Origin: Candidatus Omnitrophota bacterium
GTDB taxonomy: Bacteria > Omnitrophota > Omnitrophia > Omnitrophales > Aquincolibacteriaceae
Length of the DNA: 59,959 nucleotides
Direction: 5' to 3'
Assembly: GCA_041666865.1 (NCBI GenBank)
Contig: JBAYGD010000016.1
Coordinates: forward strand, 1 to 59,959
Every line of letters starts with the position of its first letter. The stretch's first letter is position 1. The translations under genes were made by a program, and so were the position numbers. Under the pieces are notes generated by a model. That model was not told the origin of the DNA, made no database searches, and was given only the letters and a program-made list of their open reading frames with translations. Of the stretch, positions 30,921-59,959 are shown in pieces.

Positions 30921-32666
30921 ATGAAAATTTCTCATCTTGCGCTGCCGGGCATTGTGCTCACGGCGCTCGCGCTGCGCTTATACGGGATCGATTTCGGCCT
31001 TCCGCATCTTTACCATGCCGATGAGCCGGTTATCGTCAATCACGCCATGGCGTACGGAGCGGGGGACCTGAACCCGCATTTTTTCCGGATCCCGCCGCTT
31101 GTGAGCTATCTTCTTTCCCTTCTGTACGGATTTTTCTTTCTCGCCGGAAAGGCCGTGTCGCTTTTCGATTCGGTCCGCGATTTTGAGGTTGCTTTTTACA
31201 GGGACCCGAGCGCTTTCTATTTTCTTGCCCGTACCGTTTTCGGGGCGTTACTGGGGACGCTTACCGTTGTCGTCCTGTATTGGACTTTGACCGCTTTCGG
31301 CCGGCGGGTTGCGCTTACCGGTGCTTTTTTTATGGCGGTTTGTTTTTTGCACGTTCGTGACAGCCATTATATCTATGTGGACATCCCCCTGGTTTTTGTC
31401 CTTACGGTCGCCTTCGGAGTCTTTTTTCGTTTGGCGCAGGCGCGTGAGCACCCGGGAGAGTCCCTCCGTCTCCATCTGACCGCAGGAGCTCTCATCGGAC
31501 TGGCCGCGGCCGTCAAATACAACGGTGTTTTTCTTGTCCTCCCGTATCTTGTTGCGACGTTCGTCCCGGAGCGGGCCGGTGCCGAGGGAGCGCGGGAGGG
31601 CCGGGGATCCGCTGTCCAAACCCTCCGGTGCTGTGCGCTCGCAGCCCTCGCCGCTTTTCTCACCTATGCCGTTCTCAATCCCTACAGTCTGATCGATTTC
31701 CGTTTTTTTCTCGCGGAGATGGGAAGCGAAGCGGCGGCCCATCCCGGGACCGGCTGGCTCCATCATTTCCGGTATTCTCTGGCCGGCGGCATCGGATGGC
31801 CTTTGCTCGGCGCGGCCTGCTGCGGCCTGATCCGATCCTTTTTCGTTCGGGACGTCCGCCGGTGGGCCATGGCGGCTTTCCTCCTGGGCTATTACGTTTT
31901 GATCGCGCGATTTGGCCAGCATCCCGAGCGCTATGTGCTTCCGCTGCTGCCGTGCGTCCTCTTTTTTGCCGCAGATTTTGCGGCTTGGGCGACCGGCCGG
32001 CTGACCCCGGGCTCATGGGCGCTTGTTTTGGCCTCGGCTGTTCTCTCGGCGCCGACTCTTGTGTCGAGCGTGCTCGTGGTCCGGCTGGCCGTTCGAGCCG
32101 ATACGAGAACACAGGCGCTTGACTGGATTAAAACGAATGTTCCATCTTCGAGCGCCATCGCGCTTGATACGGCGATGTTCATGCCGCGCCTGGAATTTGT
32201 CCGGGACCAGTTGGCTGTAAAGCGCCACGAGGCCGCACACGGGGCTTCCTTTTCCTCTGCCCGCCTGCGTAAGCTCGAGTACCAGCTCAGCCGGCCCGAT
32301 GCCGCCCGGCGGGGCTATTCTCTTTTTTTTATGTCAAAAAATTCGGCGGCCGAAGCGCCCCTTTACGCAAAGCCCGCCGTGCCTTATGACTGGGCCAAGC
32401 TCCGGGAAAACGGGGCCCAGTTCGCGGTGCTTGCGAAGACCGATCCCGAGGCATGGCAGTCGCCTTTTTTCCTGGCCTTGGACGCTCATGCGGTCCGGGT
32501 GACGGGGTGGAATCCTTACCGAAACCAAAAAATCGCGTTCAGCATGGACCCGTATGCCGTGACCGGCCTGCCTTTCCTTTTGGCTGACCTGTGGGCCCGT
32601 GACGATCCCGGCCCGCCCCTTGAAATTTACCGGTTGTCCCGCCAATCCCACGGAGAGGAAACCTAA
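30921..32666 (+). CDS. GT-C fold polytopic glycosyltransferase (GT39/ArnT/PMT_2-like) no. 1
   Basis: More than 10 predicted TM segments with an N-terminal LRLYGIDFGLPHLYHADEP loop typical of PMT_2-type enzymes. A perfect TATAAT lies at 30910-30915. Confidence 0.6.
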   Translation: MKISHLALPGIVLTALALRLYGIDFGLPHLYHADEPVIVNHAMAYGAGDLNPHFFRIPPLVSYLLSLLYGFFFLAGKAVSLFDSVRDFEVAFYRDPSAFYFLARTVFGALLGTLTVVVLYWTLTAFGRRVALTGAFFMAVCFLHVRDSHYIYVDIPLVFVLTVAFGVFFRLAQAREHPGESLRLHLTAGALIGLAAAVKYNGVFLVLPYLVATFVPERAGAEGAREGRGSAVQTLRCCALAALAAFLTYAVLNPYSLIDFRFFLAEMGSEAAAHPGTGWLHHFRYSLAGGIGWPLLGAACCGLIRSFFVRDVRRWAMAAFLLGYYVLIARFGQHPERYVLPLLPCVLFFAADFAAWATGRLTPGSWALVLASAVLSAPTLVSSVLVVRLAVRADTRTQALDWIKTNVPSSSAIALDTAMFMPRLEFVRDQLAVKRHEAAHGASFSSARLRKLEYQLSRPDAARRGYSLFFMSKNSAAEAPLYAKPAVPYDWAKLRENGAQFAVLAKTDPEAWQSPFFLALDAHAVRVTGWNPYRNQKIAFSMDPYAVTGLPFLLADLWARDDPGPPLEIYRLSRQSHGEET

Positions 32667-32675
32667 ACGATTCCG

Positions 32676-33773
32676 ATGAAGAGAAACCTGATCCTAGCCT
32701 GTTTTTCCGTGATCTTTGCTCTGATCTTCGCTGAGGGAGTGCTCCGGGTTTTACCCTCGCAGCCCCGTGCGGCCAAGCCGGCTCAGGGGCCGAAGACGGA
32801 TTGGGTGAATGTTCCCGAACGCGTCTGGACCGAATATCACCCCCAGTTGGGCTGGTATCACATGAAGAACAAGAAGGCGGTGCTTCCCGTCGGTGGCCGT
32901 GAGGTCGAAGTCCATACCAATGCCGCCGGTTTCCGGGGCGTCCGGGAGTATGAGACCGTGAAGCCCGCGGGTACGACGCGCCTCCTCGTTCTCGGAGACA
33001 GCTTTCCGTTCGGTTTCGGCGTCGGCGACACGGAATCGTTTCCCGCGGTCCTGGAGGCGGAGGATCCGAAGCGCGAAGTCCTGAATTTGAGCGTGCCCGG
33101 CTACGGCATTGACCAGATGCTCGTGGCTTGGAGGATCCTCGGTGCGCTGTACCAGCCGGATATTGTTCTGATAGGGATCTTCCCCGAGGACTTTTGGCGC
33201 TGCACTCGCGCCTTTGCGGATTCCGGCCACGCCAAGCCGTATTTTTTCCTGTCCGGAGACGGCCGGCTCGAGCTGAAAAATGTTCCGGTGCCGCCGCAGT
33301 ATCAATTGAACGCGGGGCAATTTCCCGAGCTGATACGACCGCGATGGCTCGGACGTTTGCTTGGGCATAGCGTGGTTTACCGTTTGGCCCAAAAGGGGCT
33401 GACTCGCCTCGCCAAGAACCTCGGTTTGATCGATCCCGACACCGAAACCGAATGGATCGTGGGGAGGGCCATTTTGAGGACACTCGTGACCGAGATCCGG
33501 CAGAGGGGGGCACGGCCGGTTCTTTTCATCTTACCTCCCGACCGCTGGGCTCAGACCCAAAGAAAAGATTCCCTCCTCAAATCTTTGTACCGCTTTTCAA
33601 GGCAGGAAGATGTCGAGATGATCGATCCGACCGGGGCGTTTTACGACGCGATCCGGCAGTCCTCTCTGGCGGACTACTACATTCAGGGCGACGGGCATTG
33701 GACGCCCCGCGGCCATCGCCTTGCCGCACAAATCATTGGCCGCTATTTCAAATGGGAGGTCCGCTCAAGATGA
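32676..33773 (+). CDS. SGNH/GDSL hydrolase family protein
   Basis: N-terminal anchor, block I LVLGDSFPFGFG and block V DGHWTPRGH. Confidence 0.6.
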   Translation: MKRNLILACFSVIFALIFAEGVLRVLPSQPRAAKPAQGPKTDWVNVPERVWTEYHPQLGWYHMKNKKAVLPVGGREVEVHTNAAGFRGVREYETVKPAGTTRLLVLGDSFPFGFGVGDTESFPAVLEAEDPKREVLNLSVPGYGIDQMLVAWRILGALYQPDIVLIGIFPEDFWRCTRAFADSGHAKPYFFLSGDGRLELKNVPVPPQYQLNAGQFPELIRPRWLGRLLGHSVVYRLAQKGLTRLAKNLGLIDPDTETEWIVGRAILRTLVTEIRQRGARPVLFILPPDRWAQTQRKDSLLKSLYRFSRQEDVEMIDPTGAFYDAIRQSSLADYYIQGDGHWTPRGHRLAAQIIGRYFKWEVRSR

Positions 33774-35506
33774 ACAGCCGCCGGTGGATGGTCTTTTTCG
33801 GTTCTCTTGCCGCGTGCGCGGCGCCGTGGTGGGCTTCTCATGTTCGGACGATCGGCGATCACAATTCCTTTTTGACCTCGGATTCCGTTTGTCTTCTGGG
33901 ATTATCGCTGATGGGCGCGCTTGCGGGATCCCGATTCTTGCCGGATGCCGTCGCGCCTTTTTGCGAACGTTCGTTACGGCGCTGGTTTCCGTCTCCGGCG
34001 CTATGGGCGTTGGCCAGTCTGCCGCTGCTTCTTTTGGCTTTGTTCTTTATGAACCAAAAAGTTCTCCACGCCTTCATCAGTTCGGCGGACGAACACTCGT
34101 GCTATTTTCTGGCGGAGTGCCTGCGCAGGGGGAAGCTCTTTGTCGAGACCCCTCCGCTGTCTGAGTTTTTCAGCGTCGTGCATGTCGGCAACAAGGGAGG
34201 CAAATGGTTCAGCGTCTATCCTCCGGGATGGCCGCTGATTTGGAGCTTTGGCCTGAGGTGTGGGATCAGCGACTGGCTCAATCCTGCGATGTCGGCGCTT
34301 TCGCTGGTCTTTTTTTATTTTGTGGCCAAGAAACTTTTTTCGCGGTCGGCTGCCGGATTGGGGTTCGCCTTGACGGCCCTTTCGCCCTTTTTTCTTTTCA
34401 CGGGTGCTTCCTATTTTTCACACGGAACTTGTCTGCTCGCAATCTCCGTCTTTTTGTGGGCCTTCGTTGAATGGCAAAGGACGGAGAGCGAAACGGGCCG
34501 GGTGGTTTGGGCCGGGATCGCGGCCTTCGCGGTCGGATACGGTCTGATGACCCGCTATCTGACCATGGCCGCCGTTGCGGGGCCTTTTCTTCTCTACCAT
34601 TTTTTGCATTGCCTTGAGCACACCGGGCGTTCCTCCGGGACAACCGGGGTTTCATGGGTTCTCGGGTGGCGCCTCAAATTGCGCCGCTCCGAATGGGTCT
34701 TTGTCTCCGTTGTGCTGGCTTTCATGCTCCTGATTCTCTGGCAGAACTATCAGGTGAGCGGCACTCCCCTTAAGGCCCCGAACAAATACGACAAGTCCTG
34801 GGAGCGCCTCGGGTTTAAACGGGGGCACTACACGCCCGTCGACGGGTTCTTTTATCTCCTCGCGCGCATTTTTTACCTGATGGACTGGTTCGCTCCGCCG
34901 ATCGTGGGGGCGTATCTATTTTTGATCTTCCGCAAGCCGTGTGGGCTTCGAGAGGACAAGCGAAGCCGATTCTCTCTCCAAACGATTTTTAGCCTAACCC
35001 CTGTCTTTTTAGCGCTGGCCTATTTTCTCTATTATTCCTGGGGCGGTAACCAGTGGGGGCCTCGGTACTGGTGGGAGGGGATGCCGTTCCTTGCGGTCGC
35101 CGTCGCGGACCGGTTGGTCCGGATGTGGCGGGAGCGCGGCGTCCGGGTCCAAAAATTCATTCTTGTTTTTATCGCCGCGTCCTTTGCCTCGTCGGGAATC
35201 CTTTTTGCTAAGCACGCGGAATTTACCGAGGAAGCCAGCCGTCAGCGCCGTGCGCTGTACGATGCGGCCGTAAAAACGACCCAAGGCCCCGCGATCGTTT
35301 TTATCAAGGGATTTTTAGGCGACAAGCTCGTGATGTCGGAGGACGATGCCGTCCGCAATTCACCCTTTCTGAACGGCCCCATCCTCTACGCCCATGATTT
35401 GGGCCCGCGAAACGGGGAGCTCAAGAAGTATTTTCCGGACCGGACGTTCTACCGCGGGACCTATGACCGGGAAAAAAATCGAGCGGTGATCGAAAGGATT
35501 GTGTAA
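33770..35506 (+). CDS. GT-C fold polytopic glycosyltransferase-like membrane protein no. 2
   Basis: Multi-TM protein with an ADEHSCYFLAE loop. The ATGA overlap with the SGNH gene sets the start, and the longer 33452 start is a frame extension. Confidence 0.5.
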   Translation: MNSRRWMVFFGSLAACAAPWWASHVRTIGDHNSFLTSDSVCLLGLSLMGALAGSRFLPDAVAPFCERSLRRWFPSPALWALASLPLLLLALFFMNQKVLHAFISSADEHSCYFLAECLRRGKLFVETPPLSEFFSVVHVGNKGGKWFSVYPPGWPLIWSFGLRCGISDWLNPAMSALSLVFFYFVAKKLFSRSAAGLGFALTALSPFFLFTGASYFSHGTCLLAISVFLWAFVEWQRTESETGRVVWAGIAAFAVGYGLMTRYLTMAAVAGPFLLYHFLHCLEHTGRSSGTTGVSWVLGWRLKLRRSEWVFVSVVLAFMLLILWQNYQVSGTPLKAPNKYDKSWERLGFKRGHYTPVDGFFYLLARIFYLMDWFAPPIVGAYLFLIFRKPCGLREDKRSRFSLQTIFSLTPVFLALAYFLYYSWGGNQWGPRYWWEGMPFLAVAVADRLVRMWRERGVRVQKFILVFIAASFASSGILFAKHAEFTEEASRQRRALYDAAVKTTQGPAIVFIKGFLGDKLVMSEDDAVRNSPFLNGPILYAHDLGPRNGELKKYFPDRTFYRGTYDREKNRAVIERIV

Positions 35507-35566
35507 AATACACTTTTTTAGCCTTGAAGGCCCTTCTTGGGGCGTTGGAAGACCGGGAGCAATGAG

Positions 35567-37096
35567 ATGAAAGTTGTACTTTTACGGCCGCCGATCGTTC
35601 AGCTGAGGACGAATTTGAGCTCCTACGGGGCCATCCTTCCCATCGGCTTGAGCTACATTGCCGCCGTGGTGCGTGCCGCCGGGCATTCGGTGGAGGTGAT
35701 CGATGCGCCGGGGGAGGCGCCACACACTTTGACGGTCAGGCCCAGTCCGGTGGGCGAACTCACCTTCCAGGGCTTGATGCCCGACGAACTTGTGGCACGC
35801 ATACCGGAAACCACCCAGGTTTTGGGCGTCACACACATGTTTCTCCACGAGTGGCCGATTATCCGGGAGATTCTGGAAAAGGTCAAAAAACGGTTTCCCC
35901 ACATCCAGGTTGTCCTGGGCGGCGAAAACGCGACGGCGTATTGGAGAGAGATTTTTACCGAAACGGACACAGTGGATTATTGCGTTTTGGGGGAGGGCGA
36001 GCAGTCGATTTTGGAGCTTCTTGACCGGATTGGTGCCGTGCGCGACGTCCGAGGCCTTCCCGGGGTCGTTGGCCGGGAGGAAGGCGTTGATCAGGCGGTC
36101 GTGGAAAGGCCGAGGATCCGGGAGATCGCGAAACTTCCGAGGCCTGCCTGGGATCTATTTCCCGTCGAGAGTTATCTCACGTTGGAAGACACCCACGGGG
36201 TCCACCGCGGCCGGTCGATGCCGATATTGGCTACGCGCGGCTGCCCCTTTGATTGTACTTTTTGCTCGAGTCCAAAAATGTGGACCCGCCTTTACGGAAC
36301 CCGGCCGCCGGCAGACGTGGTGGCCGAGATCCGTGACTATGTCCAAAAATACCGAGTGGCCAATATCAACTTTTGCGATTTGACGGCGATTGTCCGCAAG
36401 GAATGGATCGTGGAATTTTGCGACTGCCTGGCCGAGCAGAATTTTTCGGTGACCTGGCAGCTTCCTACGGGGACCCGCACCGAGGTTCTGGACGATGAGG
36501 TCCTGGCCAAAATGGTCAAGACCGGGTGCCGGAATATCACCTATGCCCCCGAGAGCGGCTCACGCCGTATGCTTCAGCTGATGAAAAAAAAGGTGGACCT
36601 CGAGAGCCTCTTGCGCTCGCTGAGCTCGGCGGTCCGCGCCCGCCTGGTCACCCGCGTCAACATCATCATCGGTCATCCCCGGGAAACGAGACGGGATACG
36701 TGGCAGTCGTTCCTTTTTCTTGTGAGGGCCGCTTGGCTGGGATGCGATGACACGGCGGTCATGATTTTCGCCCCTTATCCGGGCAGCGAAGATACGCGCA
36801 ACCTCATCGCTGAAACCGGGCTGCGCTTTGGCCAGGACTACTACTACCTGCCGCTGGCGCGTTCGGGCTGGAGCAGCCGCACTTACAACCCGGTGATGTC
36901 CACGGGAGAACTGATTTTCTGGCAATACCTGATGCTCGTTGCCTTTTACGCCACCGCCTATTTGACGAGGCCCTGGAGGATTTGGAAGGCCTTCTGTGCT
37001 TTCACAGGCCTGAGCGGGGAGGCGACCCAGTTGGACCAGCTGCTGCGCACGAAGTTCAAAAGCCGCGGCGCCGAAGTCGTGAACCGAGGAGCGTAA
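35567..37096 (+). CDS. B12-binding domain radical SAM protein no. 1
   Basis: N-terminal Rossmann-like B12-binding-type region (MKVVLLRPP...IGLSYIAA) and the CxxxCxxC cluster ATRGCPFDCTFCSS. Confidence 0.85.
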   Translation: MKVVLLRPPIVQLRTNLSSYGAILPIGLSYIAAVVRAAGHSVEVIDAPGEAPHTLTVRPSPVGELTFQGLMPDELVARIPETTQVLGVTHMFLHEWPIIREILEKVKKRFPHIQVVLGGENATAYWREIFTETDTVDYCVLGEGEQSILELLDRIGAVRDVRGLPGVVGREEGVDQAVVERPRIREIAKLPRPAWDLFPVESYLTLEDTHGVHRGRSMPILATRGCPFDCTFCSSPKMWTRLYGTRPPADVVAEIRDYVQKYRVANINFCDLTAIVRKEWIVEFCDCLAEQNFSVTWQLPTGTRTEVLDDEVLAKMVKTGCRNITYAPESGSRRMLQLMKKKVDLESLLRSLSSAVRARLVTRVNIIIGHPRETRRDTWQSFLFLVRAAWLGCDDTAVMIFAPYPGSEDTRNLIAETGLRFGQDYYYLPLARSGWSSRTYNPVMSTGELIFWQYLMLVAFYATAYLTRPWRIWKAFCAFTGLSGEATQLDQLLRTKFKSRGAEVVNRGA

Positions 37097-37098: not shown

Positions 37099-37896
37099 AT
37101 GATCAAAGGGAAGAAGATTATCGTGACGATGCCCGCCTATAATGCGGAAGATACGCTGGAGAAGACTTACCGGGAGATCCCGCGGGATGTCGTGGATGAG
37201 GTGATCCTTGTGGATGACGCCAGCAAAGACCGCACCATGGAGGTTGCGGCCAGACTCGGAGTGGATGTGACGATCCAGCACAAAAAAAACCTCGGCTACG
37301 GAGGGAATCAAAAGACCTGTTACACCGAAGCCCTCCGGCGGGGCGCCGACATCGTCATTATGCTTCATCCCGATTACCAATATACGCCCGCTTTGATTGA
37401 GCCGCTTGCATGGCTGATTGCTCATGAGACGTATGATTTTGCCTTCGGCTCGCGCATCCTGGGCAGCAGCACGCTCAGCGGAGGAATGCCGCTTTACAAG
37501 TTTGTGGCCAACCGGACGCTCAGCCTGCTGGAGAACATCGTTCTCTGGCAGCATGTTTCGGAGTATCACTCGGGGTACCGCGCTTTTTCGCGGAGGGTTT
37601 TGGAAACGGTGCCGTTTATGAATAATTCCGACAACTTTGTCTTCGATAACGAAATTCTGGCCCAGGTCTTTTACGCGGGCTTTCGCGTCGGGGAGATTTC
37701 CTGCCCGACGAAGTATTTTCCCGAGGCCTCCTCCATCAGCTTCAAAAATAGCGTGCGCTACGGAATGGGGGTTGTCCGGACCATGCTCAAGTACCGTTTG
37801 AAGTGTATGCGACTTCTGCACCCGAAGATCTTCGCCGGCATGTCGCGCCATATGGCGGCGTCCGAACGCGCCGCGGCTGCAGGTCATGCGGCCTAA
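37099..37896 (+). CDS. GT2 glycosyltransferase, polyprenyl-phosphate sugar synthase-like (CsbB/GtrB/ArnC type)
   Basis: IVTMPAYNAEDTL, VDDASKDRT and the short soluble GT2 architecture. It lies directly upstream of, and overlaps, the YfhO gene. Confidence 0.8.
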   Translation: MIKGKKIIVTMPAYNAEDTLEKTYREIPRDVVDEVILVDDASKDRTMEVAARLGVDVTIQHKKNLGYGGNQKTCYTEALRRGADIVIMLHPDYQYTPALIEPLAWLIAHETYDFAFGSRILGSSTLSGGMPLYKFVANRTLSLLENIVLWQHVSEYHSGYRAFSRRVLETVPFMNNSDNFVFDNEILAQVFYAGFRVGEISCPTKYFPEASSISFKNSVRYGMGVVRTMLKYRLKCMRLLHPKIFAGMSRHMAASERAAAAGHAA

Positions 37897-50011: not shown

Positions 50012-50044
50012 TGATCAAGAAGAGAATATAAATCGTATTTATTT

Positions 50045-50073: not shown

Positions 50074-50105
50074 TTTCAGAATAAGGTTTAGTCGCTCTGG
50101 GTGAT

Positions 50106-51020: not shown

Positions 51021-51034
51021 CTAGGAATAGCACT

Positions 51035-52015: not shown

Positions 52016-52058
52016 ATAGTGCGGAGTGACCCAATGCGTTGAACAGGGGGGAGGGGTT

Positions 52059-52940: not shown

Positions 52941-53662
52941 CGATTCTCGACAAGGTCCTCCGCAAGATTTACGGCGCCACGCTCGGCAGGCACGTAGCCC
53001 TCGACCGGTTTTTCCGCTACCGTGAACCGCACCGTTACTGGAAAGAACGCGGGGGCGAGACCTATTTTGAAGAACAGGAGGCCGTGGCGGACCGGACTGA
53101 ACGAAGCGATTTTATCGGCGGGGAAGTTGCCCTCCTGGATTTTTCATCGATCCTTGAGATCGGCTGCGGCTACGGAAAGCAGCTGCGGAACATTTCGGGC
53201 CGCAAGAGAAGCGTGAGCTTTGGCGGCTGCGACTTTAGCCGGCCTCAGTTACTCAAGGGCTTTCAGTATTTCTCGGCGATGCAAAACCGCGTCGTGGAGG
53301 CGGATGCGGAGCACCTTCCGTTCCGGGACAAGAGCTTCGACCTGGTGATGTCCTCGGCGGTCATCCTCCACAACGAATACCGCAAGGCCCAGCGAATGAT
53401 TTGGGAGATGATCCGGGTCGCTCGAAAATTCCTGGTTCATAATGAAGACACGGACGTGACGTTCTCGCGCTATGGGTATGATATGACGCAAACGTATCAG
53501 GCCATGGATTTCAGGGTCGTGGAGTCTGTCGAAATTCCCTGCGCGCAGAGCCCTGCCGACACGCAGTTTACCGTCGCCGAGATTCCGTCGAGCGCCGGGC
53601 GGCTTCGGCCGCAGGATATTCCTTTGCAGTATCACAAAAAAAGCGCGAAAGCCTGCCGATGA
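52937..53662 (+). CDS. class I SAM-dependent methyltransferase
   Basis: Motif I ILEIGCGYGKQL and LPFRDKSFDLV. It has an ATGA overlap upstream. Confidence 0.75.
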   Translation: MTILDKVLRKIYGATLGRHVALDRFFRYREPHRYWKERGGETYFEEQEAVADRTERSDFIGGEVALLDFSSILEIGCGYGKQLRNISGRKRSVSFGGCDFSRPQLLKGFQYFSAMQNRVVEADAEHLPFRDKSFDLVMSSAVILHNEYRKAQRMIWEMIRVARKFLVHNEDTDVTFSRYGYDMTQTYQAMDFRVVESVEIPCAQSPADTQFTVAEIPSSAGRLRPQDIPLQYHKKSAKACR

Positions 53663-54417
53663 AGCCGATTCTCTTGATTCCCACTTATGATGAAAAGGAG
53701 AACATCACGGACCTGATCCCGGCGATCCGCGGGGAAACCGCCGAATGCCCCGTGGAGATCCTCGTGATCGACAGCGGTTCGCCCGACGGGACGGGGGAGG
53801 CGGTCTCGGGGATTTCCCGACGCGACAACGGCGTCCACCTCCTTCAGCAAAATGCCAAGCTGGGCCTGGGGCGCGCCTATGTGGACGGAATGCAGTGGGC
53901 GCTCGCGCGCGACTACGACGTGATTATCACCATGGATGCCGATTTTTCCCATCATCCTCGCTATATTCCGGAGCTTCTGCGACGGATCAAGGATTGCGAT
54001 CTGGTCATCGGATCACGTTATATTCCTGGGGGGGAACTGCGTGATTGGCCGCGTTCCAGGCGCCTCTTGAGCCGCTTTGCTAACGCCTATGCCAAAAAAA
54101 TTACGGGTCTCCCGTTTTCGGATCTGACGGCGGGCTTCCAATGCTTCCGCTCGGATTTGTTACGGAAAGTGATCCGCTACCCTTTGCATGCGGACGGGTA
54201 TGCTTTTCTGATTTCACTGAAGTTTTGGTCGGTCGTGCAGGAGGCCCGGTTCGCGGAGATCCCCATAATTTTTACGGACCGCACGAAGGGCACGACAAAA
54301 ATCTCGCACCGGGTCATTTTTGAATCGATTGTCTTCGTGTGGAAATGCTTCTTTCAGCGCCACCGCTTTTCAAAGCGCCCGAAACCTGTAAACGGGAAAC
54401 CGGATGAAAGGGGCTGA
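53659..54417 (+). CDS. polyprenol-phosphate mannose/hexose synthase (Dpm1/Ppm1-like GT2)
   Basis: LLIPTYDEKENI, VIDSGSPDGT, MDADFSHHP and IGSRYIPGG. It has an ATGA overlap upstream. Confidence 0.85.
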   Translation: MKPILLIPTYDEKENITDLIPAIRGETAECPVEILVIDSGSPDGTGEAVSGISRRDNGVHLLQQNAKLGLGRAYVDGMQWALARDYDVIITMDADFSHHPRYIPELLRRIKDCDLVIGSRYIPGGELRDWPRSRRLLSRFANAYAKKITGLPFSDLTAGFQCFRSDLLRKVIRYPLHADGYAFLISLKFWSVVQEARFAEIPIIFTDRTKGTTKISHRVIFESIVFVWKCFFQRHRFSKRPKPVNGKPDERG

Positions 54418-54420: not shown

Positions 54421-56058
54421 GTGAAAACCTTTTCGGCATCTTTTCCATCGCCCGGAAGTAGTGATTCGGTTCGCCAGAAGCGCCTGCGCGGGTGGAAGCC
54501 ATACGGGGTAGTTTTTTTTGCGGCACTTTTGGTGCTCGGAGTGCAGCTTTTGCAGGTTCAGAGGCCTTTTCGCGGTCATTTTGCCAGTTATCAGGCGACC
54601 GTGATGGCTTCCATAGCGCGCAACATGGTCGAGGAGGATTTTAAGGAAATTCTTTTGCCAAAAACGAACTTGCTGATTGTGACCCCACGGAAGTCTTATC
54701 ACCTCAATCAATATCCGTTTCCATCCTTGCTCGTGGCGGTGTGCGTGAAATTCCTCGGAGGCCCTTACGAGGTTTGGGGGCGCTTGCAGGCGATTCTTTT
54801 TAATCTTCTGGGGGCCGTCTTGATGTTCCGGATCGGGGCGCGTCTTTTGGGCCGTGCTGCGGGATTGATCGCGAGTCTCCTGTTCCTAATGCTTCCGTTT
54901 TCGGTCATTTACGGGCAAATGTTCCTTTGCGAGCCCATGGCCGTTTTTTTTCTTTTGGCGTCTGTGTGGCTTCTTGCCAGACAGGGGGTTCCGTCACGCA
55001 TGGCGACCGTGATGAGCGCCTTGTGTTTCTCTTTGGCCATTGCGAACCGCACGCACTACCTTTTTTTCTTTCCGGCTCTTCTTTATTTTTTGTGGATCCG
55101 CTCCCGCAGGATCCTCACCTGCATGGTCTTTCTCTTGTTGGGGGGCTTCCTGCCGGCCGCATGGGCCTGGCATACGTTTGTCGTGGGACAGCTTCATCCC
55201 CTGCAGACGCACACCAACCTTTTTTTTCAGGCAGGTTCCGCGTCGGTTTTTGGAATTCGTCTTTTGGCAGGTGCCAATTACTGGCGTTATATCCTGGACC
55301 TTTTTTCGAATGAAATGCTGACACCGGCGGTTTTTCCGTTTGTCCTCCTCGGCCTCGCGGGTCTTTGGAATAGCCAAAAACAGGTTTTTCGTTTTTTCCT
55401 TCTGTGGACGGCCGGGGGTCTTGTGTTGATATTTTTGGCTCCAAAAAAAATCATCGATCAGGATTTTTATCTTTACGGCCTCTATCCCGCGTTGCTTTTT
55501 TTAGCGGCTTGCGGGATCGAAAAAATTTCGGATGTTTTTTCATTTTTGAGGCGTTCCCGTTTTTTGGTAGCCGGCACGCTGCTCTTGATGGCGGTTTCAG
55601 CCCGTTACTTTGTTCATCCGATTTTTCAGTATCCCAAGGAAGAAAAGGATGTCGGCGCGATCGGTGCCTGGGTGCAAAAAGAGACCTCTCCAGGGGATAT
55701 CGTTATTTTGTCGGGCTCGTCCGCCGCCTTATTAAATTACTATGTCAATCGCCCGGTTTACGGGTTCTCTTTGCAGAAAGAGAAGGTTTTTTCCCCTTAT
55801 TTCATGAACCGCAGTTTCCAACGCTCGGAGCGGGACGCCATCGAGGCGATGAAAGCGGCTATGCACGATGACATTTCATTGCTGGAATACCTGAGAGGCC
55901 GGGGGGCCGGCTATCTATTGGCTTCGAGTCTTGACGGGCAGCAGGGGATTTCATCCCGGCTGCTTGATTACCTGAAAATGAATTATTCGGAGTGCCCGCC
56001 GGGGTTCGACGGCGTACGGCTTTTCAACCTTCGGGATAAAAGGCAGGCCGAAAAATGA
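54421..56058 (+). CDS. GT-C fold polytopic glycosyltransferase (GT39/ArnT-like) no. 4
   Basis: More than 10 TM segments and an N-terminal ASYQATVMASIARNMVEEDF loop. It lies directly downstream of the Dpm1-like GT2. Confidence 0.6.
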   Translation: MKTFSASFPSPGSSDSVRQKRLRGWKPYGVVFFAALLVLGVQLLQVQRPFRGHFASYQATVMASIARNMVEEDFKEILLPKTNLLIVTPRKSYHLNQYPFPSLLVAVCVKFLGGPYEVWGRLQAILFNLLGAVLMFRIGARLLGRAAGLIASLLFLMLPFSVIYGQMFLCEPMAVFFLLASVWLLARQGVPSRMATVMSALCFSLAIANRTHYLFFFPALLYFLWIRSRRILTCMVFLLLGGFLPAAWAWHTFVVGQLHPLQTHTNLFFQAGSASVFGIRLLAGANYWRYILDLFSNEMLTPAVFPFVLLGLAGLWNSQKQVFRFFLLWTAGGLVLIFLAPKKIIDQDFYLYGLYPALLFLAACGIEKISDVFSFLRRSRFLVAGTLLLMAVSARYFVHPIFQYPKEEKDVGAIGAWVQKETSPGDIVILSGSSAALLNYYVNRPVYGFSLQKEKVFSPYFMNRSFQRSERDAIEAMKAAMHDDISLLEYLRGRGAGYLLASSLDGQQGISSRLLDYLKMNYSECPPGFDGVRLFNLRDKRQAEK

Positions 56059-58088
56059 AGATTGCTTTGCTTGAACTGAATCATATGACCCTCGGTGTTC
56101 ACACGAATACGGCACCGCTCGGGATCGGCGTCATTGCAAAGTACCTCCAGCTTCAGTTCGGGGCTTCCGTGGAGGTGCGATTGTTTAAGGATGCCCAAAA
56201 ATTCATGGAAGCCGCCCAGACCTGGACGCCGGATGTTTTGGGGCTCGGCCAGTATGCTTGGAACAGCGAGCTGAACCTCTTTATGGCGAGGCGGCTCAAA
56301 GAGCGAAATTCCTCCCTTGTGGTCGTTGCGGGAGGTCCTAATCTTGAATTGGGGAGCCTCCAAAGGGCCGACTACCTGAGAAAAAATCCGATCTTGGATA
56401 TTTGCGTGTGCTTCGACGGCGAAATCCCCATGGCGACGATCGTGCAAAGACTTCTGGCGGGGGAATCGATTCAATCGATTCGCAAAAAACCCTCGGCGGG
56501 AACGTATTCCCTCGACCCGGATTCGCTGAGGCTCCTCGAGTCCCCGGAACCTCCCCCCCGGCTTCCCTCGCTGGATTTATTAGGGCCGATGTATGCCGAA
56601 GGTTTTTTTGACGAATTTCTGGAGGATGGCTATCAGCCTTTTCTCCAGACGCAGCGGGGATGCCCCTTTCTTTGCGCTTATTGTCACAGCGGCAATCGTT
56701 ACCACAATAAAATTCTTTTTCAGTCGCCTTCCATCTTTCGACAGGACATGGAATATTTGGGCCGGCGCTTTCGCGGAAATCATAACGTCACCATCCACAT
56801 CGCCAACGCCAACTTCAGTCTGTTTAAGGAGGATTTTGAAATTGCCGATGTGATCCGTGAGATTCAGGAGGCCTACGATTGGCCGATCAGCATCTCGGTG
56901 AATTCCGGGAAAGATCCTAAGAAATTGATGAGCCTGGTCCATCGCCTCAAATTCAAATTTGTCCCCGCCATCGCACTCCAAACGCTGACGGCGAAGGTGC
57001 TCAAAAATATCGGCCGCATCAATATTCCTCTCGAGAGCTTTATCGATTTTCAAAAAGAAGTCGGACGGGTGATTGAATCCAACCCCGCCACGGAGCTGAT
57101 TTTGTCGCTCCCCGAAGAGACGAAGGCGAGTTTCATGGACACCGTCCGTCTGGTGCTCAACTCCGGAGTCCAGAATATCGTGATTTATACGCTGATGTCG
57201 CTGCGGGGGACCGAGCTGGATACTCCGGAGGCTGCCGAGAAATACGGTCATGTCTTTCGCTACCGAATTGTACCGCGTTGTTTTACCGAGGTAGGGGATG
57301 AAAAGATTTTTGAGATCGAAAAGGTCATCGTTGGGACGCACAGCATGCCCTATGAGGACTATTTAGAGCTGCGCGGATTAGCGCTGATCATTGCCGTTTT
57401 TGCGAGCTCCATCGAACTTATGCCGCTTCGGAGGCTTTTGCTGACCTACGGCTTGGATTTGGCCGAGTGGATAAACGATATCCACAAAACCATTCTGGGA
57501 CATCCGGTATTGTCTCCAATCTATCGGCAATTCATTTTTGATACGGAACACGAAGTTTATGAGACCCCCGAGGCCATCCGGACTTTTTTTGGCAGGGCCG
57601 AAAATTTCGAAGCACTCAAAGAGGGGAAGTTCGGTGATAATCTGATGCGCCGATACAAAACGATCTTACTTTCGGGCTATTTTAAGGATTGCCTGGACAT
57701 CGCCTATGAAGAAAGTGTGGCGATGGCAAAAACGAATCGGCTGGACCTGCCGTTGGAATTACTGGAGGATATTAGAGTTTTTATGAAGAGCAGGAACATC
57801 GGGGATGTTTTTAGAACCGGTTACCCCGTGGGCCAGCCGACTCCGATCGTACTCACTTATGATATCCCGCGATGGCTTGCGAATGCCGGCGAATTGGAGA
57901 ATCTCGAAAACTATCGCGGCCGGTTTGTCTATACTCTGGAAGTCACCGATTATATTCGGAAGCGGCTGCATGATTTTCAGTTGACCAATCGAAACCCTCT
58001 TCTTTCCCTTCAAATCCTATACCGTGACGGTTCGATTAGGGATTTTTGGCCCATTTGGGTTCCTGTTACGCAAGTGTCTTCCAAATAA
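56055..58088 (+). CDS. B12-binding-like domain radical SAM protein no. 2 with a large C-terminal extension
   Basis: N-terminal MKIALLELN...PLGIGVIAKYL and the cluster QRGCPFLCAYCHS. It has an ATGA overlap upstream. Confidence 0.8.
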   Translation: MKIALLELNHMTLGVHTNTAPLGIGVIAKYLQLQFGASVEVRLFKDAQKFMEAAQTWTPDVLGLGQYAWNSELNLFMARRLKERNSSLVVVAGGPNLELGSLQRADYLRKNPILDICVCFDGEIPMATIVQRLLAGESIQSIRKKPSAGTYSLDPDSLRLLESPEPPPRLPSLDLLGPMYAEGFFDEFLEDGYQPFLQTQRGCPFLCAYCHSGNRYHNKILFQSPSIFRQDMEYLGRRFRGNHNVTIHIANANFSLFKEDFEIADVIREIQEAYDWPISISVNSGKDPKKLMSLVHRLKFKFVPAIALQTLTAKVLKNIGRINIPLESFIDFQKEVGRVIESNPATELILSLPEETKASFMDTVRLVLNSGVQNIVIYTLMSLRGTELDTPEAAEKYGHVFRYRIVPRCFTEVGDEKIFEIEKVIVGTHSMPYEDYLELRGLALIIAVFASSIELMPLRRLLLTYGLDLAEWINDIHKTILGHPVLSPIYRQFIFDTEHEVYETPEAIRTFFGRAENFEALKEGKFGDNLMRRYKTILLSGYFKDCLDIAYEESVAMAKTNRLDLPLELLEDIRVFMKSRNIGDVFRTGYPVGQPTPIVLTYDIPRWLANAGELENLENYRGRFVYTLEVTDYIRKRLHDFQLTNRNPLLSLQILYRDGSIRDFWPIWVPVTQVSSK

Positions 58089-58215: not shown

Positions 58216-58458
58216 ATGTCCTTCATTGAAGCAAACGAAGTGTATACCCCAAAAGAATCCCAGAAGCTTCTGAAAATCAGTCAGAGTACCATGACCCGCA
58301 TGATCAAAAACGGGCTTATCCGGGCGGCGAAAGTCGGGAAACAATACCGGATCATGGGCAAGGAGCTCTTACGTGTTTTGTCCCCTCAACTTGAGGATCA
58401 GGTTGGGATTGCTTACAATAAGGCCCGCCACTGGATTCATGAAGAACCGCAGGGATGA
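58216..58458 (+). CDS. small excisionase-family helix-turn-helix DNA-binding protein
   Basis: YTPKESQKLLKISQSTMTRMIKNGLIRAAKVGKQYRI matches the HTH_17/excisionase pattern. Confidence 0.6.
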   Translation: MSFIEANEVYTPKESQKLLKISQSTMTRMIKNGLIRAAKVGKQYRIMGKELLRVLSPQLEDQVGIAYNKARHWIHEEPQG

Positions 58459-58476: not shown

Positions 58477-59661
58477 ATGTCATCATCCAAACGAAGGGAG
58501 GATTCGGTGAGTCGTCATCAAGCAGGCATGGATATTTTACGGCATAATCAGGATCTGCCCGCGGCCTATCAGCGCGAGTTGAACCAGGAATTTGACGCCG
58601 TGTATCAAGATCACAAAACTCAACCCAGAATTCTTATCCTGGGTGGCGCGGGGTACATCGGATCGGTCTTGACCGGGTATTTGCTTGATTGCGGCTATTG
58701 CGTTCGCTGTCTTGATCTGTTTCTTTACGGCCAAGAAGAGGTGACGAAGCCTTTTGAGAAATTTCCTTCTTTTGAATTGATCAAGGGTGATTTTACCGAC
58801 GAGAACACGCTCATCCGGGCGCTGGACTCCGTTACGGATGTGGTCATCCTCGCAGGTCTTGTGGGAGATCCCATCACCAAAAAATATCCCGAAGCCTCGC
58901 AGGCGATCAATGTGGACGGCATGATGCAGTTGATCCGGATCCTGAAACCTAGGGAACTCAACAAAATTATTTTTGTCTCGACGTGCTCGAATTACGGGTT
59001 GATCCCCGGCGATGCTCTGGCGGACGAGCAGTTCGAGCTCAAGCCGTTATCTCTTTATGCGAAGGCCAAAGTGGCCGTAGAACAAGAGCTGCTTGCCTTG
59101 AAAGGGAAGCTGTCTTTTTCGCCGACCGTTCTTCGATTTGCGACGGCCTTCGGCCTATCTCCCCGGATGCGGTTTGACCTGACGGTCAACGAGTTTACGC
59201 GGGAGGCTTTCCTCGCCCATGAGCTTTTGGTCTACGATGCCGAAACTTGGAGGCCTTATTGCCATGTCCGCGATTTGTCGCTTGTGATCCGGCGCGTGCT
59301 CGAAGCGCCGCGCGCGCGGGTCGCCTTTGAGGTGTTCAATGTCGGCGGCGAGGCCAATAACATGACCAAGCAGATGATTGTGGACGCCATCAAGCGCGAG
59401 GTCCCCGCACTGAAAGTCAAATGGAAAGAGCACGGCTCGGATCCCAGAAATTACAGGGTCGATTTCAAAAAAATCAAAGAACGGCTTTTTTTCGAGCCTC
59501 AATATCAAGTGTCCAGTGGCATTGCGGAGCTTTTGACGGCCTTTCGCCAGGGACAATTTTGCGATGTCGAGAGTCGCACAGCTTTCTACGGGAATTACAC
59601 GGTGGATTATCCGATCCTCCGCAAGGATTCGAAGGGAGCTTTGCCGGTATGCCGCAGCTGA
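58477..59661 (+). CDS. NAD-dependent epimerase/dehydratase (extended SDR)
   Basis: ILGGAGYIGSVL Rossmann motif, and STCSNYG with YAKAK (YxxxK). The ~50-aa N-terminal extension means the start may be the downstream Met at 58528. Confidence 0.83.
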   Translation: MSSSKRREDSVSRHQAGMDILRHNQDLPAAYQRELNQEFDAVYQDHKTQPRILILGGAGYIGSVLTGYLLDCGYCVRCLDLFLYGQEEVTKPFEKFPSFELIKGDFTDENTLIRALDSVTDVVILAGLVGDPITKKYPEASQAINVDGMMQLIRILKPRELNKIIFVSTCSNYGLIPGDALADEQFELKPLSLYAKAKVAVEQELLALKGKLSFSPTVLRFATAFGLSPRMRFDLTVNEFTREAFLAHELLVYDAETWRPYCHVRDLSLVIRRVLEAPRARVAFEVFNVGGEANNMTKQMIVDAIKREVPALKVKWKEHGSDPRNYRVDFKKIKERLFFEPQYQVSSGIAELLTAFRQGQFCDVESRTAFYGNYTVDYPILRKDSKGALPVCRS

Positions 59662-59959
59662 GATCCCAGCTGGATGTGGAGGCCGTCAGGCGCGCGATCC
59701 GCGGCTGCTTGCCTCAAGACAGAAAGGACTTTCAGCTCCACGAGCCTTGCTTGTGCGGGAACGAGTGGGATTATGTCAAAGAATGCCTGGACACGAATTG
59801 GGTTTCTTCGGTCGGAAAGTTTGTCGACAGGTTCGAGCAGGATCTTGCCCGTTACACGGGCGTCGCATCCGCCGTGGCGATGGTCAACGGCACGTCCGCT
59901 TTGCACATCGCGCTGAAGGTTTGCGGCGTGGAACCCCAGGACGAGGTCTTGGTGCCCGC
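59649..59959 (+). CDS. DegT/DnrJ/EryC1/StrS-family aminotransferase, N-terminal fragment (runs off the window)
   Basis: My own translation from the ATG at 59649 gives MPQLRSQLD...LHEPCLCGNEWDYVKECLDTNWVSSVGKFVDRFEQDLARYTG...NGTSALHIAL. It is absent from the ORF track because there is no stop before the window edge. Confidence 0.78.
   Translation, partial: MPQLRSQLDVEAVRRAIRGCLPQDRKDFQLHEPCLCGNEWDYVKECLDTNWVSSVGKFVDRFEQDLARYTGVASAVAMVNGTSALHIALKVCGVEPQDEVLVP

Follow-up and report, generated by a model that had tools for sequence, protein, structure and literature searches.

What does an operon-like run of genes make when it joins a phosphonate pathway, radical S-adenosylmethionine (SAM) enzymes and a series of membrane glycosyltransferases, and where is its product placed? 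The question is raised by a ∼27-kb island (30921–58088, plus strand) on the stretch of DNA analyzed here, hereafter the window, which comprises the 59,959 nucleotides at positions 1 to 59,959 of contig JBAYGD010000016.1 (GenBank assembly GCA_041666865.1) from a Candidatus Omnitrophota bacterium. On balance, comparison with related loci makes it probable that the island makes a cytidine monophosphate (CMP)-activated phosphonate and installs it on an envelope glycoconjugate, and that it was assembled from exchangeable modules. Most of the argument concerns a radical SAM enzyme with a SPASM domain and a divergent membrane enzyme, g22.

Within 30921–58088, the open reading frame (ORF) listing and a table of intergenic gaps gave 22 genes, all on the plus strand, with junctions of −62 to +44 nt apart from one 124-nt gap at 50012–50135. 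Position 58088 is followed by a 127-nt gap and then by a helix-turn-helix (HTH) gene, a short-chain dehydrogenase/reductase (SDR) gene and the beginning of a DegT gene. Families were assigned to the genes by Pfam, NCBIfam and PDB sequence searches, and neighbourhoods were compared with those of other loci, designated by L numbers. The backbone upstream of the island, which encodes an M48 protease, BatD, a TPR protein, TrpB, TrpA, RuvX, an M16 peptidase, LepA, a signal peptidase, a GH1 enzyme and a SPOR protein, is common to the window, L022 and L023. The LepA protein of this backbone was 73–78% identical to proteins labelled Candidatus Omnitrophota. L022 and L014 are parts of one 263-kb JGI contig, on which LepA was 86% identical; in the more distant Omnitrophota locus L023 it was 78% identical. 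After the SPOR gene, the island was present in the window and L022 only, and L023 goes on with unrelated genes. L022/L014 holds the window island gene for gene at 56–91% identity, with only 37% for the last GT-C-type glycosyltransferase (GT-C d). The island is accessory in the Omnitrophota chromosome, because it follows the shared backbone syntenically in this close relative and is absent from the same site in L023. Scans for tRNA and Rfam elements found no tRNA, Rfam element or riboswitch at the island borders; promoter and terminator scans gave the same counts as shuffled sequence and were thus uninformative on operon structure.

The phosphonate cassette occupies 43065–48777:

43065–43940, plus strand: EamA/DMT transporter (Pfam EamA, E 2e-22)
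43966–45162, plus strand: radical SAM/SPASM enzyme (Pfam Radical_SAM and SPASM; CNFKCIYC and seven invariant C-terminal Cys)
45169–46824, plus strand: phosphoenolpyruvate (PEP) mutase (Ppm, PepM) fused to a C-terminal LicC/PntC-type nucleotidyltransferase (Pfam PEP_mutase, E 9e-52; NTP_transf_3)
46763–48001, plus strand: phosphonopyruvate decarboxylase, Ppd (TIGR03297, E 7.5e-88; Pfam TPP_enzyme_N and TPP_enzyme_C)
47998–48777, plus strand: second LicC/PntC-type nucleotidyltransferase (Pfam NTP_transf_3, E 5e-13; LicC 1jyk, E 1e-13; Tde-PntC 6pd1, E 1.5e-4)

The PEP mutase carries EDKKFPKVNS at residues 111–120, an instance of the EDKxxxxxNS motif that sets Ppm apart from the rest of the isocitrate lyase superfamily (PMC6697681). 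It scored 297.9 bits against the equivalog model TIGR02320, below the cutoff of 319.55, and phosphonopyruvate hydrolase followed closely at 282 bits; the mutase is favoured over the hydrolase because of the motif Asn and the adjoining Ppd. Ppd, directly downstream of Ppm, scored 295 bits with TIGR03297, just under the cutoff of 312.5, and the next family, sulfopyruvate decarboxylase, reached 101 bits; the true Ppd start is probably downstream of 46763. In the PDB search, the C-terminal domain of the fusion matched LicC (1jyk, E 8e-6) and Tde-PntC (6pd1, E 2e-4). Both nucleotidyltransferases thus combine a PF12804 domain and LicC/Tde-PntC similarity with a position at or fused to Ppm, and are predicted to be CTP-dependent phosphonate activators. 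PntC enzymes make CMP-2-aminoethylphosphonate (CMP-AEP), and ∼60% of Ppm enzymes carry such a domain as a fusion (PMC6697681). The EamA protein matched TIGR03340, a ‘phosphonate utilization associated putative membrane protein’ (E 8e-40; 137 bits, below the cutoff of 288), and its homologues, 53–82% identical, adjoin the radical SAM gene in nine loci.

The enzymes that usually follow Ppd are missing. In the window, no AEP transaminase (AEPT) homologue was found, and the sole class V aminotransferase match was the glycine dehydrogenase GcvP2; tblastn returned no Fe-alcohol dehydrogenase (Fe-ADH) homologue and Pfam no cupin epoxidase. The radical SAM/SPASM enzyme has C43, C47 and C50 together with invariant C286, C304, C345, C350, C358, C361 and C394, corresponding to two auxiliary clusters; numerous Arg and Lys residues are invariant as well. 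These features are compatible with a small anionic substrate and with a redox reaction like those of anSME/BtrN or AhbD. None of the NCBIfam equivalogs considered (AhbD, NirJ, MoaA, anSME, BtrN, peptide maturases) was reached, the best being AhbD at 73 bits against a cutoff of 500, and the phosphonate cassette contained no haem or sulfatase genes. The family comprised ∼80 clusters at 54–80% identity, followed by a sharp drop to ≤40%, and none was named. In a fold search, the AlphaFold2 (AF2) model (pLDDT 88) was closest to SkfB and anSME at a TM-score (TM) of ∼0.6. Two other assignments were rejected. For a maturase of peptides made on the ribosome and modified after translation (RiPPs), the 6–25 nt junctions leave no precursor-peptide ORF and the constant partner is Ppm. 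For an anSME-type maturase of a sulfatase-family transferase, a weak sulfatase match was present in L020 only and is hence not general.

The linkage of this family to PEP mutase was constant. It lay within ∼1.5 kb of PEP mutase in 12 of 12 distinct neighbourhoods (the window, L002, L003, L005, L007, L014, L016, L017, L018, L019, L020 and L021), which span Omnitrophota, Planctomycetaceae, Chloroflexi, Deltaproteobacteria and two virus-like contigs. Fe-ADH occurred in none of the 12, and an AEPT-type class V aminotransferase in one (L020), leaving the window and 10 of the 11 others free of AEPT homologues, at odds with an AEP-type cluster. Among the PEP mutase loci that have no such radical SAM gene, five of nine (L006, L011, L013, L054 and L058) had Fe-ADH and/or AEPT next to Ppd. 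This near-complementary pattern is our main argument for placing the SPASM enzyme after Ppd, as a candidate branch-point or tailoring enzyme in place of the usual ones. The cassette also occurs with other glycan machinery, namely GT4/Wzy in L021 and LicD in L019 and L020.

A precedent was found in one place. A ‘post-Ppd other’ class has been defined for ppm-ppd pairs accompanied by none of seven known branch-point enzymes, and in Campylobacter GCF 385 such a pair is flanked by a radical SAM gene and an adenylylsulfate (APS) kinase gene, as noted in one sentence (PMC8942020). GCF 385 resembles the window cassette in having Ppm and Ppd beside a radical SAM gene and no known branch-point enzyme, a likeness drawn by description only, not by sequence, and its APS kinase has a parallel in the APS-kinase gene that adjoins the cassette in L018 and L019. 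Apart from that sentence, no paper linking a SPASM radical SAM enzyme to phosphonate biosynthesis was found in the literature searched.

Two sets of loci extended the range of these genes. The virus-like contigs L019 (ENA ERZ27252234 k141_1301427) and L020 (k141_2285479), of 78 and 117 kb, encode a family B DNA polymerase, a clamp-loader, a Cas4-like nuclease and a resolvase. Their phosphonate set includes a CTP_transf_like-PEP mutase fusion, a split Ppd, the radical SAM/SPASM enzyme, B12 radical SAMs, two LicD genes and APS kinase, with the class V aminotransferase in L020; large viruses or elements thus appear to encode phosphonate decoration. A scan of IMG/VR for viral copies of the radical SAM/SPASM family returned unrelated radical SAM fragments only. 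In archaea, L006 (a Methanosarcinales metagenome-assembled genome, MAG) and L011 (a Nanoarchaeia MAG) hold PEP mutase-nucleotidyltransferase fusions 48–52% identical to that of the window, together with AEPT, Fe-ADH and one to three B12 radical SAMs, which suggests methylated phosphonates in archaea.

The step by which the phosphonate would leave its nucleotide is assigned to a second module, the transfer core (42141–43055 and 48774–53662):

42141–43055, plus strand: SAM methyltransferase a, with an N-terminal Cys-rich ribbon (Pfam Methyltransf_23, E 3e-19)
48774–49304, plus strand: NUDIX hydrolase, NudE-like (Pfam NUDIX, E 7.5e-19; NCBIfam NudE, E 7e-24, below cutoff)
49301–50011, plus strand: cytidylate (CMP) kinase, cmk (NCBIfam cmk equivalog, 180 bits, above the cutoff of 135.6)
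52059–52940, plus strand: g22, divergent CDP-alcohol phosphotransferase-like membrane enzyme (Pfam E 0.0056; 17.5 bits against a cutoff of 22)
52937–53662, plus strand: SAM methyltransferase c (Pfam Methyltransf_25 and Methyltransf_11)

The g22 protein departs from the family signature D(x)2DG(x)2AR(x)8G(x)3D(x)3D: it reads D86-x2-D89-G-x2-A-R94, a longer spacer of ∼20 residues, and G115-x3-D119-x3-H123, the last Asp being replaced by His. Its motif, DCVDGEVAR...GAYWDYLNH, was invariant in 36 homologues, and the family comprised 134 representative clusters at E≤1e-30. The fold was that of the family all the same: the AF2 model (pLDDT 89.9) had CDP-alcohol phosphotransferases as its top 14 Foldseek matches (TM 0.39–0.58), including AF2299 at TM ∼0.57 with a probability of 1.0, and the PDB sequence match had an E of 3e-7.

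The neighbours of g22 in the metagenome loci were constant, namely cmk, NUDIX and homologues of methyltransferases a and c. Of the 15 neighbourhoods that had context, 14 showed cmk immediately upstream of the g22-family gene, and NUDIX homologues (51–59% identical) lay upstream of Cmk-g22 in 10 metagenome loci. Homologues of methyltransferase a (40–45% identical) were found just upstream of NUDIX-Cmk-g22 in L047–L050 and L059 and just downstream of g22 and a YfhO-like gene in L054; those of methyltransferase c (52–59% identical) were next to NUDIX-Cmk-g22 in L046–L048, L050 and L051. The genes in front of this core varied. The g22-family gene stood behind PepM/Ppd, with or without Fe-ADH, in the window, L002, L014, L054 and L058 (PepM-Ppd-Fe-ADH in the last two), and directly after Ppd in L016. 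In L045/L053, L055, L056 and the P0262 contig the core was preceded by phosphoramidate genes like Cj1418, Cj1417 and Cj1416, in the order PRK05849 (953 bits), gamma-glutamyl-CDP-amidate hydrolase and cytidylyltransferase, and in L048 by a gene set of the pseudaminic/legionaminic-acid type. We take PRK05849 to be the Cj1418 family. The order enzyme-nucleotidyltransferase-(NUDIX)-Cmk-g22 recurred in lineages of 40–58% GC. That two unrelated pathways to cytidine-diphospho donors directly precede g22 and a CMP kinase speaks strongly, as far as gene context goes, for transfer of the phosphorus head group by g22 with loss of CMP; g22 is proposed to be the phosphonyl transferase, and Cmk likely recycles the CMP released by transfer.

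The phosphoramidate loci bear on a known pathway, that of the O-methyl phosphoramidate (MeOPN) of Campylobacter jejuni, made by the Cj1415–Cj1422 enzymes (PMC11800397). Its logic, with an unusual phosphorus head group, CTP activation, transfer to a surface glycan and methylation, is shared with the island, and Cj1418, Cj1417 and Cj1416 homologues precede the same Cmk-g22 core in L045, L055 and L056. In contrast to the MeOPN pathway, the window has PepM, Ppd and a radical SAM enzyme instead of a glutamine kinase and hydrolase, cmk instead of the APS-kinase-type Cj1415, and a transferase of CDP-alcohol type rather than Cj1421/Cj1422 type. No PPDK_N/PEP-utilizers or GATase domain was found by Pfam in any window gene, whereas both were present in L045, L055 and L056. 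The environmental bacteria of L045/L053, L055, L056 and the P0262 contig carry their MeOPN enzyme homologues beside cmk, a CDP-alcohol-type transferase, GT2 and PMT_2 genes, L045 also having heptose-synthesis genes, so that MeOPN-like chemistry may be much wider than Campylobacter.

The third part of the island consists of glycosylation genes and their neighbours, most of them on its left side:

30921–32666, plus strand: GT-C a, PMT/PMT_2 (Pfam PMT, E 2e-14; PMT_2, E 2e-8; PDB Pmt1 6p25, E 1e-7; seven hydrophobic segments)
32676–33773, plus strand: SGNH/GDSL hydrolase or acyltransferase with an N-terminal membrane or signal segment (Pfam Lipase_GDSL_2, E 2.5e-9; ALGX sub-threshold; kept in L022)
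33770–35506, plus strand: GT-C b, PMT_2 (Pfam PMT_2, E 5e-6; 27.1 bits, cutoff 26.1)
35537–37096, plus strand: B12-binding radical SAM a (Pfam B12-binding and Radical_SAM)
37099–37896, plus strand: GT2 a, polyprenyl-phosphate sugar synthase-like (Pfam Glycos_transf_2, E 7e-18)
37886–40270, plus strand: large polytopic GT-C-like membrane protein (nine hydrophobic segments; YfhO and PTPS_related matches sub-threshold)
40251–42137, plus strand: GT-C c, PMT (Pfam PMT, E 5.5e-5; 23.3 bits, cutoff 22.7; ten hydrophobic segments)
53659–54417, plus strand: GT2 b, soluble dolichol/polyprenol-phosphate sugar synthase-like (PDB dolichol-phosphate mannose synthase, DPMS, 5mlz from Pyrococcus, E 2e-28; ArnC, E 4e-10; no hydrophobic segment)
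54421–56058, plus strand: GT-C d, PMT_2 (Pfam PMT_2, 26.9 bits, cutoff 26.1)

The four GT-C proteins at 30921, 33770, 40251 and 54421 scored above the Pfam gathering thresholds for PMT/PMT_2 and were polytopic, with 4–10 hydrophobic segments. GT-C a is the first island gene, at the point where the backbone order ends in L023, and L022 holds the same PMT gene after SPOR. The 37886 protein matched YfhO (PF09586) over its C-terminal 40 residues only, at 20.4 bits against a gathering cutoff of 28.5, and PTPS_related at 21.6 against 26.4, and had no NCBIfam match; its homologues flank the g22-family gene in L054 and L060. Each GT2 gene stands directly upstream of a GT-C gene, as is expected of polyprenyl-phosphate sugar synthases, and both GT2 proteins resemble such enzymes, their NCBIfam scores being below the equivalog cutoffs (best matches of GT2 a: PpgS, AglJ and dolichyl-phosphate hexose transferase). 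Identity to L014 was 91% for GT2 a, 68% for GT-C c and 71% for B12 radical SAM a; counterparts of GT-C b in L014 and L002 were 56–64% identical, and GT2 b was 60–87% identical in L002, L014 and L054. B12 radical SAM a is likely a methyltransferase, its best NCBIfam matches, all below cutoff, being ApyD, the Sden_1168 P-methyltransferase family (135 bits, cutoff 575) and BchE. GT-C d was only 36–40% identical to its positional counterparts, compared with 60–87% for its neighbours, and appears to be a fast-diverging partner of GT2 b. Across the comparison, DPMS-like GT2, GT-C (PMT_2) or YfhO-like genes flanked g22 in at least 12 loci, often overlapping it or within a few bases.

Do these modules belong together? 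L002, whose PEP mutase is 78% identical to that of the window, has GT-C b, GT-C c, the YfhO-like gene and one further PMT_2 gene and continues with methyltransferase a, EamA, radical SAM/SPASM, PepM-nucleotidyltransferase, Ppd, nucleotidyltransferase, NUDIX, Cmk, g22, methyltransferase c, GT2 b, GT-C d, HTH, DegT and 4,6-dehydratase genes. In L016 (Omnitrophota GCA_043797125), a nucleotidyltransferase-EamA-radical SAM-PepM/nucleotidyltransferase-Ppd series leads directly into a CDP-OH-type gene, beyond which lie a GT2, a methyltransferase, a second CDP-OH gene, PMT_2, LPG_synthase_TM, a methyltransferase and a GT4; a 680-residue B12 radical SAM is encoded upstream of the cassette. Because the gene order recurs in L002 and L014/L022 and the combination in L016, the adjacency is not accidental in this lineage. 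A preliminary description, made from the window sequence, had read the locus as building a polyprenol-dependent phosphonate glycoconjugate by a combination that was no described pathway, and had named accidental adjacency around pepM as one way in which it might fail. The neighbourhoods argue against such accident, no characterized cluster matching the locus was found in the literature searched, and the GT2/GT-C and CMP-phosphonate logic fits the closest relatives that have been solved or characterized. What did not stand was the idea of one indivisible system: the locus appears modular, with a phosphonate cassette, a transfer core, glycosylation genes and variable parts. Nor did the emphasis on GT-C and B12 radical SAM genes hold, since NUDIX, Cmk and the methyltransferases are the most constant partners of g22, and the second B12 radical SAM, the last GT-C and a NodB/methyltransferase pair are variable or foreign. 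A key point had been overlooked, namely that no known post-Ppd enzyme is present and that the SPASM radical SAM appears to take its place.

From what was observed, namely the gene families with their motifs and folds, the synteny, the island status and the recurrence of modules, we infer every substrate, the order of steps, the radical SAM reaction and the final acceptor as follows. PEP mutase would convert PEP to phosphonopyruvate, and Ppd would pull the equilibrium to phosphonoacetaldehyde. The radical SAM/SPASM enzyme, with its two auxiliary clusters, would act on phosphonoacetaldehyde or its CMP conjugate, replacing the aminotransferase or Fe-ADH; an oxidative or C-C-cleaving change is a working guess, and our confidence in any particular reaction is low. 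The two LicC/PntC-type nucleotidyltransferases would make CMP-phosphonate, an analogue of a CDP-alcohol, and the EamA permease would move the phosphonate or an intermediate linked to lipid. In the reaction of CDP-alcohol phosphotransferases the attack is on the beta phosphorus, and CMP leaves; by analogy, a membrane-bound hydroxyl acceptor would attack the phosphonyl phosphorus of CMP-phosphonate by way of g22, with release of CMP. Cmk would recycle the CMP, NUDIX would clear or edit nucleotide conjugates, and the methyltransferases would methylate the head group or a sugar. DPMS/ArnC-type GT2 enzymes and their GT-C partners glycosylate outside the membrane. Here the two GT2 enzymes would load sugars on polyprenyl phosphate and the five GT-C-type enzymes would transfer them outside the cytoplasmic membrane, the phosphonate acceptor most likely being one of these lipid-linked sugars or a glycan built from them.

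Several observations weigh against phosphonate transfer to a glycoconjugate. The evidence is comparative throughout, and the relatives are all metagenomic. CDP-alcohol phosphotransferases classically make lipids, not glycan decorations, and g22, having lost the last canonical Asp and scoring under the Pfam threshold, may differ in its chemistry. Five g22 loci had no head-group pathway within the available flank (≤10 kb; L047 and L059 are short contigs), and the core may thus use an ordinary CDP-alcohol. The cmk score passes a housekeeping equivalog threshold, and NUDIX-cmk-g22 could be a housekeeping phospholipid unit that gathers glycan genes. The SPASM fold is generic, with peptide maturases and anSME at TM ∼0.6, and gives no clue to the reaction. 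Finally, EamA-radical SAM-PepM-Ppd stands alone among housekeeping genes in L007 and L017, with no transferase or glycan genes nearby, from which it follows that the cassette can work independently of the rest.

The main rival is phosphonolipid synthesis, in which g22 would move the phosphonate from CMP-phosphonate to diacylglycerol or another membrane lipid, like the ethanolamine/choline phosphotransferases, and the GT2/GT-C genes would be a separate neighbouring glycan system. We regard it as doubtful, though it has to be taken seriously: every structural neighbour of g22 makes lipid or inositol phosphate, cmk adjoins g22, and L016 has two CDP-OH-type genes and an LPG_synthase_TM gene. The ‘Burkholderiales_CDP-OH’ Pnt group, in which a Ppm-PntC fusion and Ppd occur with a second PntC and genes of phospholipid synthesis, has been predicted to make phosphonolipids (PMC8942020). 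Against this rival stand the at least 12 loci in which DPMS-like GT2, PMT_2 or YfhO-like genes flank the g22 family, and the island has no acyltransferase or CDP-diacylglycerol synthase. The same core moreover pairs with MeOPN-like genes, and in Campylobacter MeOPN decorates sugars (PMC11800397).

The Burkholderiales group is also the nearest counterpart of the window in its gene content. The closest described kind appears to be a phosphonyl-tailoring cluster, and the locus resembles a hybrid of ‘Burkholderiales_CDP-OH’, the MeOPN pathway and Arn/Pmt-type polyprenol glycosylation. The Burkholderiales group shares with the window a fusion of Ppm to a PF12804 cytidylyltransferase, Ppd, a second PntC-type enzyme and a CDP-alcohol-type membrane transferase, with a predicted surface or membrane destination (Rice et al. 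2019, PMC6697681; Li & Horsman 2022, PMC8942020); its role, too, is a predicted one. Unlike that group, the window has neither AEP transaminase nor 2-oxoglutarate oxygenase, having radical SAM/SPASM and EamA instead, and its transferase belongs to a divergent subfamily (last signature Asp to His) set among DPMS-like GT2 and five GT-C genes. Polyprenyl-phosphate systems (ArnC/ArnD/ArnEF/ArnT, CsbB/GtcA/YfhO and Ppm1/Pmt) likewise have a DPMS/ArnC-like GT2 by a GT-C, a DMT-superfamily protein, a NodB-type deacetylase, and DegT and SDR enzymes. They differ in that the window has five GT-C paralogues and two GT2 and no formyltransferase, its YfhO match is sub-threshold, its NodB gene is a foreign insert missing in relatives, and its EamA gene travels with the phosphonate cassette. 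In Borg elements of Methanoperedens, DPMS, MeOPN-like genes and a PEP mutase-cytidylyltransferase fusion occur together and have been read as surface decoration in a descriptive annotation (PMC12660748); there the host and elements are archaeal, and no radical SAM/SPASM or CDP-alcohol-type core was reported.

Quite unlikely is a diffusible phosphonate, in which EamA-radical SAM-PepM/nucleotidyltransferase-Ppd makes a small secreted product, cytidylylation serves as a transient handle for the radical SAM enzyme, as in fosfomycin, NUDIX removes CMP, EamA exports the product, and the glycan adjacency is meaningless. The EamA protein resembles phosphonate-associated permeases, and the four- or five-gene cassette does stand alone among unrelated genes in L017 and L007. 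In the fosfomycin pathway, parallels are offered by Fom2 and by a radical SAM enzyme that acts on a CMP-phosphonate. Fom1 is, like the window enzyme, a PepM-cytidylyltransferase fusion (PMC6697681), and the set Fom1, Fom2, FomC, Fom3 and FomD shares with the window this fusion, Ppd, a radical SAM enzyme with CMP-bound phosphonates and a candidate conjugate hydrolase (NUDIX). The window fusion, however, has a C-terminal PF12804 domain, whereas that of Fom1 is an N-terminal PF01467; the window radical SAM is of SPASM type, not B12 type, and its context is one of envelope genes. No FomC-like Fe-ADH, Fom4-like epoxidase or resistance gene was present, the B12 radical SAM genes lie ∼8–9 kb from the core, NUDIX and Cmk go with the g22 core and not with the cassette, and the cassette sits, with no gaps, amid genes for transferases and glycosylation in the window, L002, L014 and L016.

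An accidental mosaic, in which NUDIX-cmk-g22 is a housekeeping nucleotide/phospholipid unit at a recombination hotspot where surface-polysaccharide, phosphonate and phosphoramidate genes pile up with no joint function, is very unlikely: the equivalog-level cmk, the visible insertions and replacements (a low-GC insert, the variable GT-C d and a second B12 radical SAM), the five g22 loci with no head-group genes nearby and the related genome that lacks the island at this site fit it, but the recurrence of two distinct donor pathways in the same order before g22, across lineages of such different GC content, is hard to explain without function, and 4-nt gene overlaps span the module borders.

The variable and foreign parts of the island and the module behind it comprise the following genes:

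50012–52058, plus strand: low-GC insert with a SAM methyltransferase (50136–51020, UbiE/CpaM-like) and a NodB/PgaB-like polysaccharide deacetylase (51035–52015), assigned by Pfam and NCBIfam
56055–58088, plus strand: B12-binding radical SAM b (Pfam Radical_SAM above cutoff, B12-binding below; NCBIfam KedN5 family, 99 bits, cutoff 700)
58216–58458, plus strand: HTH_17 (excisionase-type) DNA-binding protein (Pfam HTH_17, E 8e-12)
58477–59661, plus strand: SDR sugar-nucleotide epimerase/dehydratase (Pfam Epimerase, E 2.5e-33; NCBIfam GalE, dTDP-glucose dehydratase and LegB-like, all below cutoff)
59649–59959, plus strand: DegT/DnrJ/EryC1 aminotransferase, N-terminal 103 residues, cut by the window end (Pfam DegT, E 1.2e-18)

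The insert has 38–39% GC in a locus of 55–60% GC, with sharp edges (0.36–0.42 against 0.55–0.62 in the flanks), and sits exactly between cmk and g22, which adjoin in L002 and L014. It was found on two assembled contigs, the window and L001, and looks like a recent horizontal acquisition into the operon. A repeat search found no repeats flanking it, and a promoter-like site was located within it at 50045, in a scan whose counts overall equalled those of shuffled sequence. B12 radical SAM b appears to belong to a KedN5-like C-methyltransferase family and is strain-variable: it was missing at this position in L002 and L014, and a 28% identical homologue lay upstream of the cassette in L016. Strain-level variability of this kind, seen here in the insert, the divergent GT-C d and the patchy occurrence of B12 radical SAM b, is commonly met in surface-antigen loci.

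Homologues of the HTH protein, 50–70% identical, were encoded beside the core in L002 and L047–L049, and an HTH_17 gene was also beside the core on the P0262 contig. The gene recurs at the junction of the transfer core with amino-sugar or nonulosonic-acid genes, and may encode a dedicated regulator of such loci. In L002, DegT and dehydratase genes likewise follow the HTH gene, and the SDR/DegT pair is best described as a separate amino-sugar module behind it.

With these genes in place, the inventory of the preliminary description can be compared with ours. Nearly every family that it named was confirmed by the Pfam, NCBIfam and PDB searches. It had placed the left edge of the island at ∼30.9 kb, where the synteny with L023 indeed breaks, and its near gap-free, co-directional plus-strand run corresponds to the 22 genes and short junctions described above. 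The two polyprenyl-phosphate-sugar-type GT2 genes (37099 and 53659) were borne out by Pfam Glycos_transf_2 and by DPMS/ArnC matches, and Pfam supported the three radical SAMs (B12-binding at 35537 and 56055, SPASM at 43966), the DMT transporter (43065), the SGNH (32676) and NodB (51035) genes and pepM-ppd with two nucleotidyltransferases. The divergent CDP-alcohol phosphotransferase (52059) was upheld by its fold, its Pfam score being sub-threshold. Four of the five GT-C proteins passed the PMT/PMT_2 thresholds, but the YfhO identity given to 37886 did not stand, and the protein is GT-C-like only. The SDR and DegT genes said to end the run are present, yet belong to the separate module. Of four SAM methyltransferases counted, only three exist (42141, 50136 and 52937), the ‘ribbon-fused’ one being the 42141 gene itself, and the list had missed NUDIX (48774–49304), cmk (49301–50011), HTH_17 (58216–58458) and the low-GC nature of 50012–52058.

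A few features of the window lie outside the island. A 670-nt stretch between the M16 peptidase and LepA genes (25841–26509) probably encodes a ribulose-phosphate 3-epimerase, which L022 and L023 hold at the same position. A 1472-residue ORF in the housekeeping part (10872–15290; high GC3, 0.69) had no Pfam match at E≤0.001. Five ORFs of 144–355 residues also had no Pfam match, at 15668–16735, 18435–18986 and 4269–4817 on the minus strand and 5297–5734 and 119–553 on the plus strand. Those at 4269–4817 and 5297–5734, with a low GC3 (0.47–0.50), may not be genes.

Most microbial phosphonate capacity is thought to serve cell-surface decoration, and the steps that follow Ppm, Ppd and cytidylylation are all but uncharacterized, the transferases most of all. 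The island offers two candidates for these steps, a conserved CDP-alcohol-phosphotransferase-like family that stands behind both phosphonate and phosphoramidate pathways, and a tightly Ppm-linked radical SAM/SPASM family that replaces the known post-Ppd branch-point enzymes in anaerobes of several phyla and in virus-like elements. A bolder proposal, which we consider unlikely as a whole, joins the two. The radical SAM/SPASM family would be an oxygen-independent phosphonate branch point acting on phosphonoacetaldehyde, for instance by radical C-C cleavage to methylphosphonate and formate, and the product would be cytidylylated, installed by the new CDP-alcohol-phosphotransferase-like family and O-methylated, as a C-P isostere of the Campylobacter O-methyl phosphoramidate. 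Across anaerobic phyla, the same core would then serve for phosphoramidate and phosphonate and possibly for further head groups. Either candidate, if true, would extend the known biochemistry of phosphonates, and a route that yields small phosphonates without oxygen would matter for the cycling of phosphorus and methane in anoxic habitats. For the Omnitrophota, uncultured bacteria of very small size that may depend on hosts, the locus gives a first view of their envelope chemistry.

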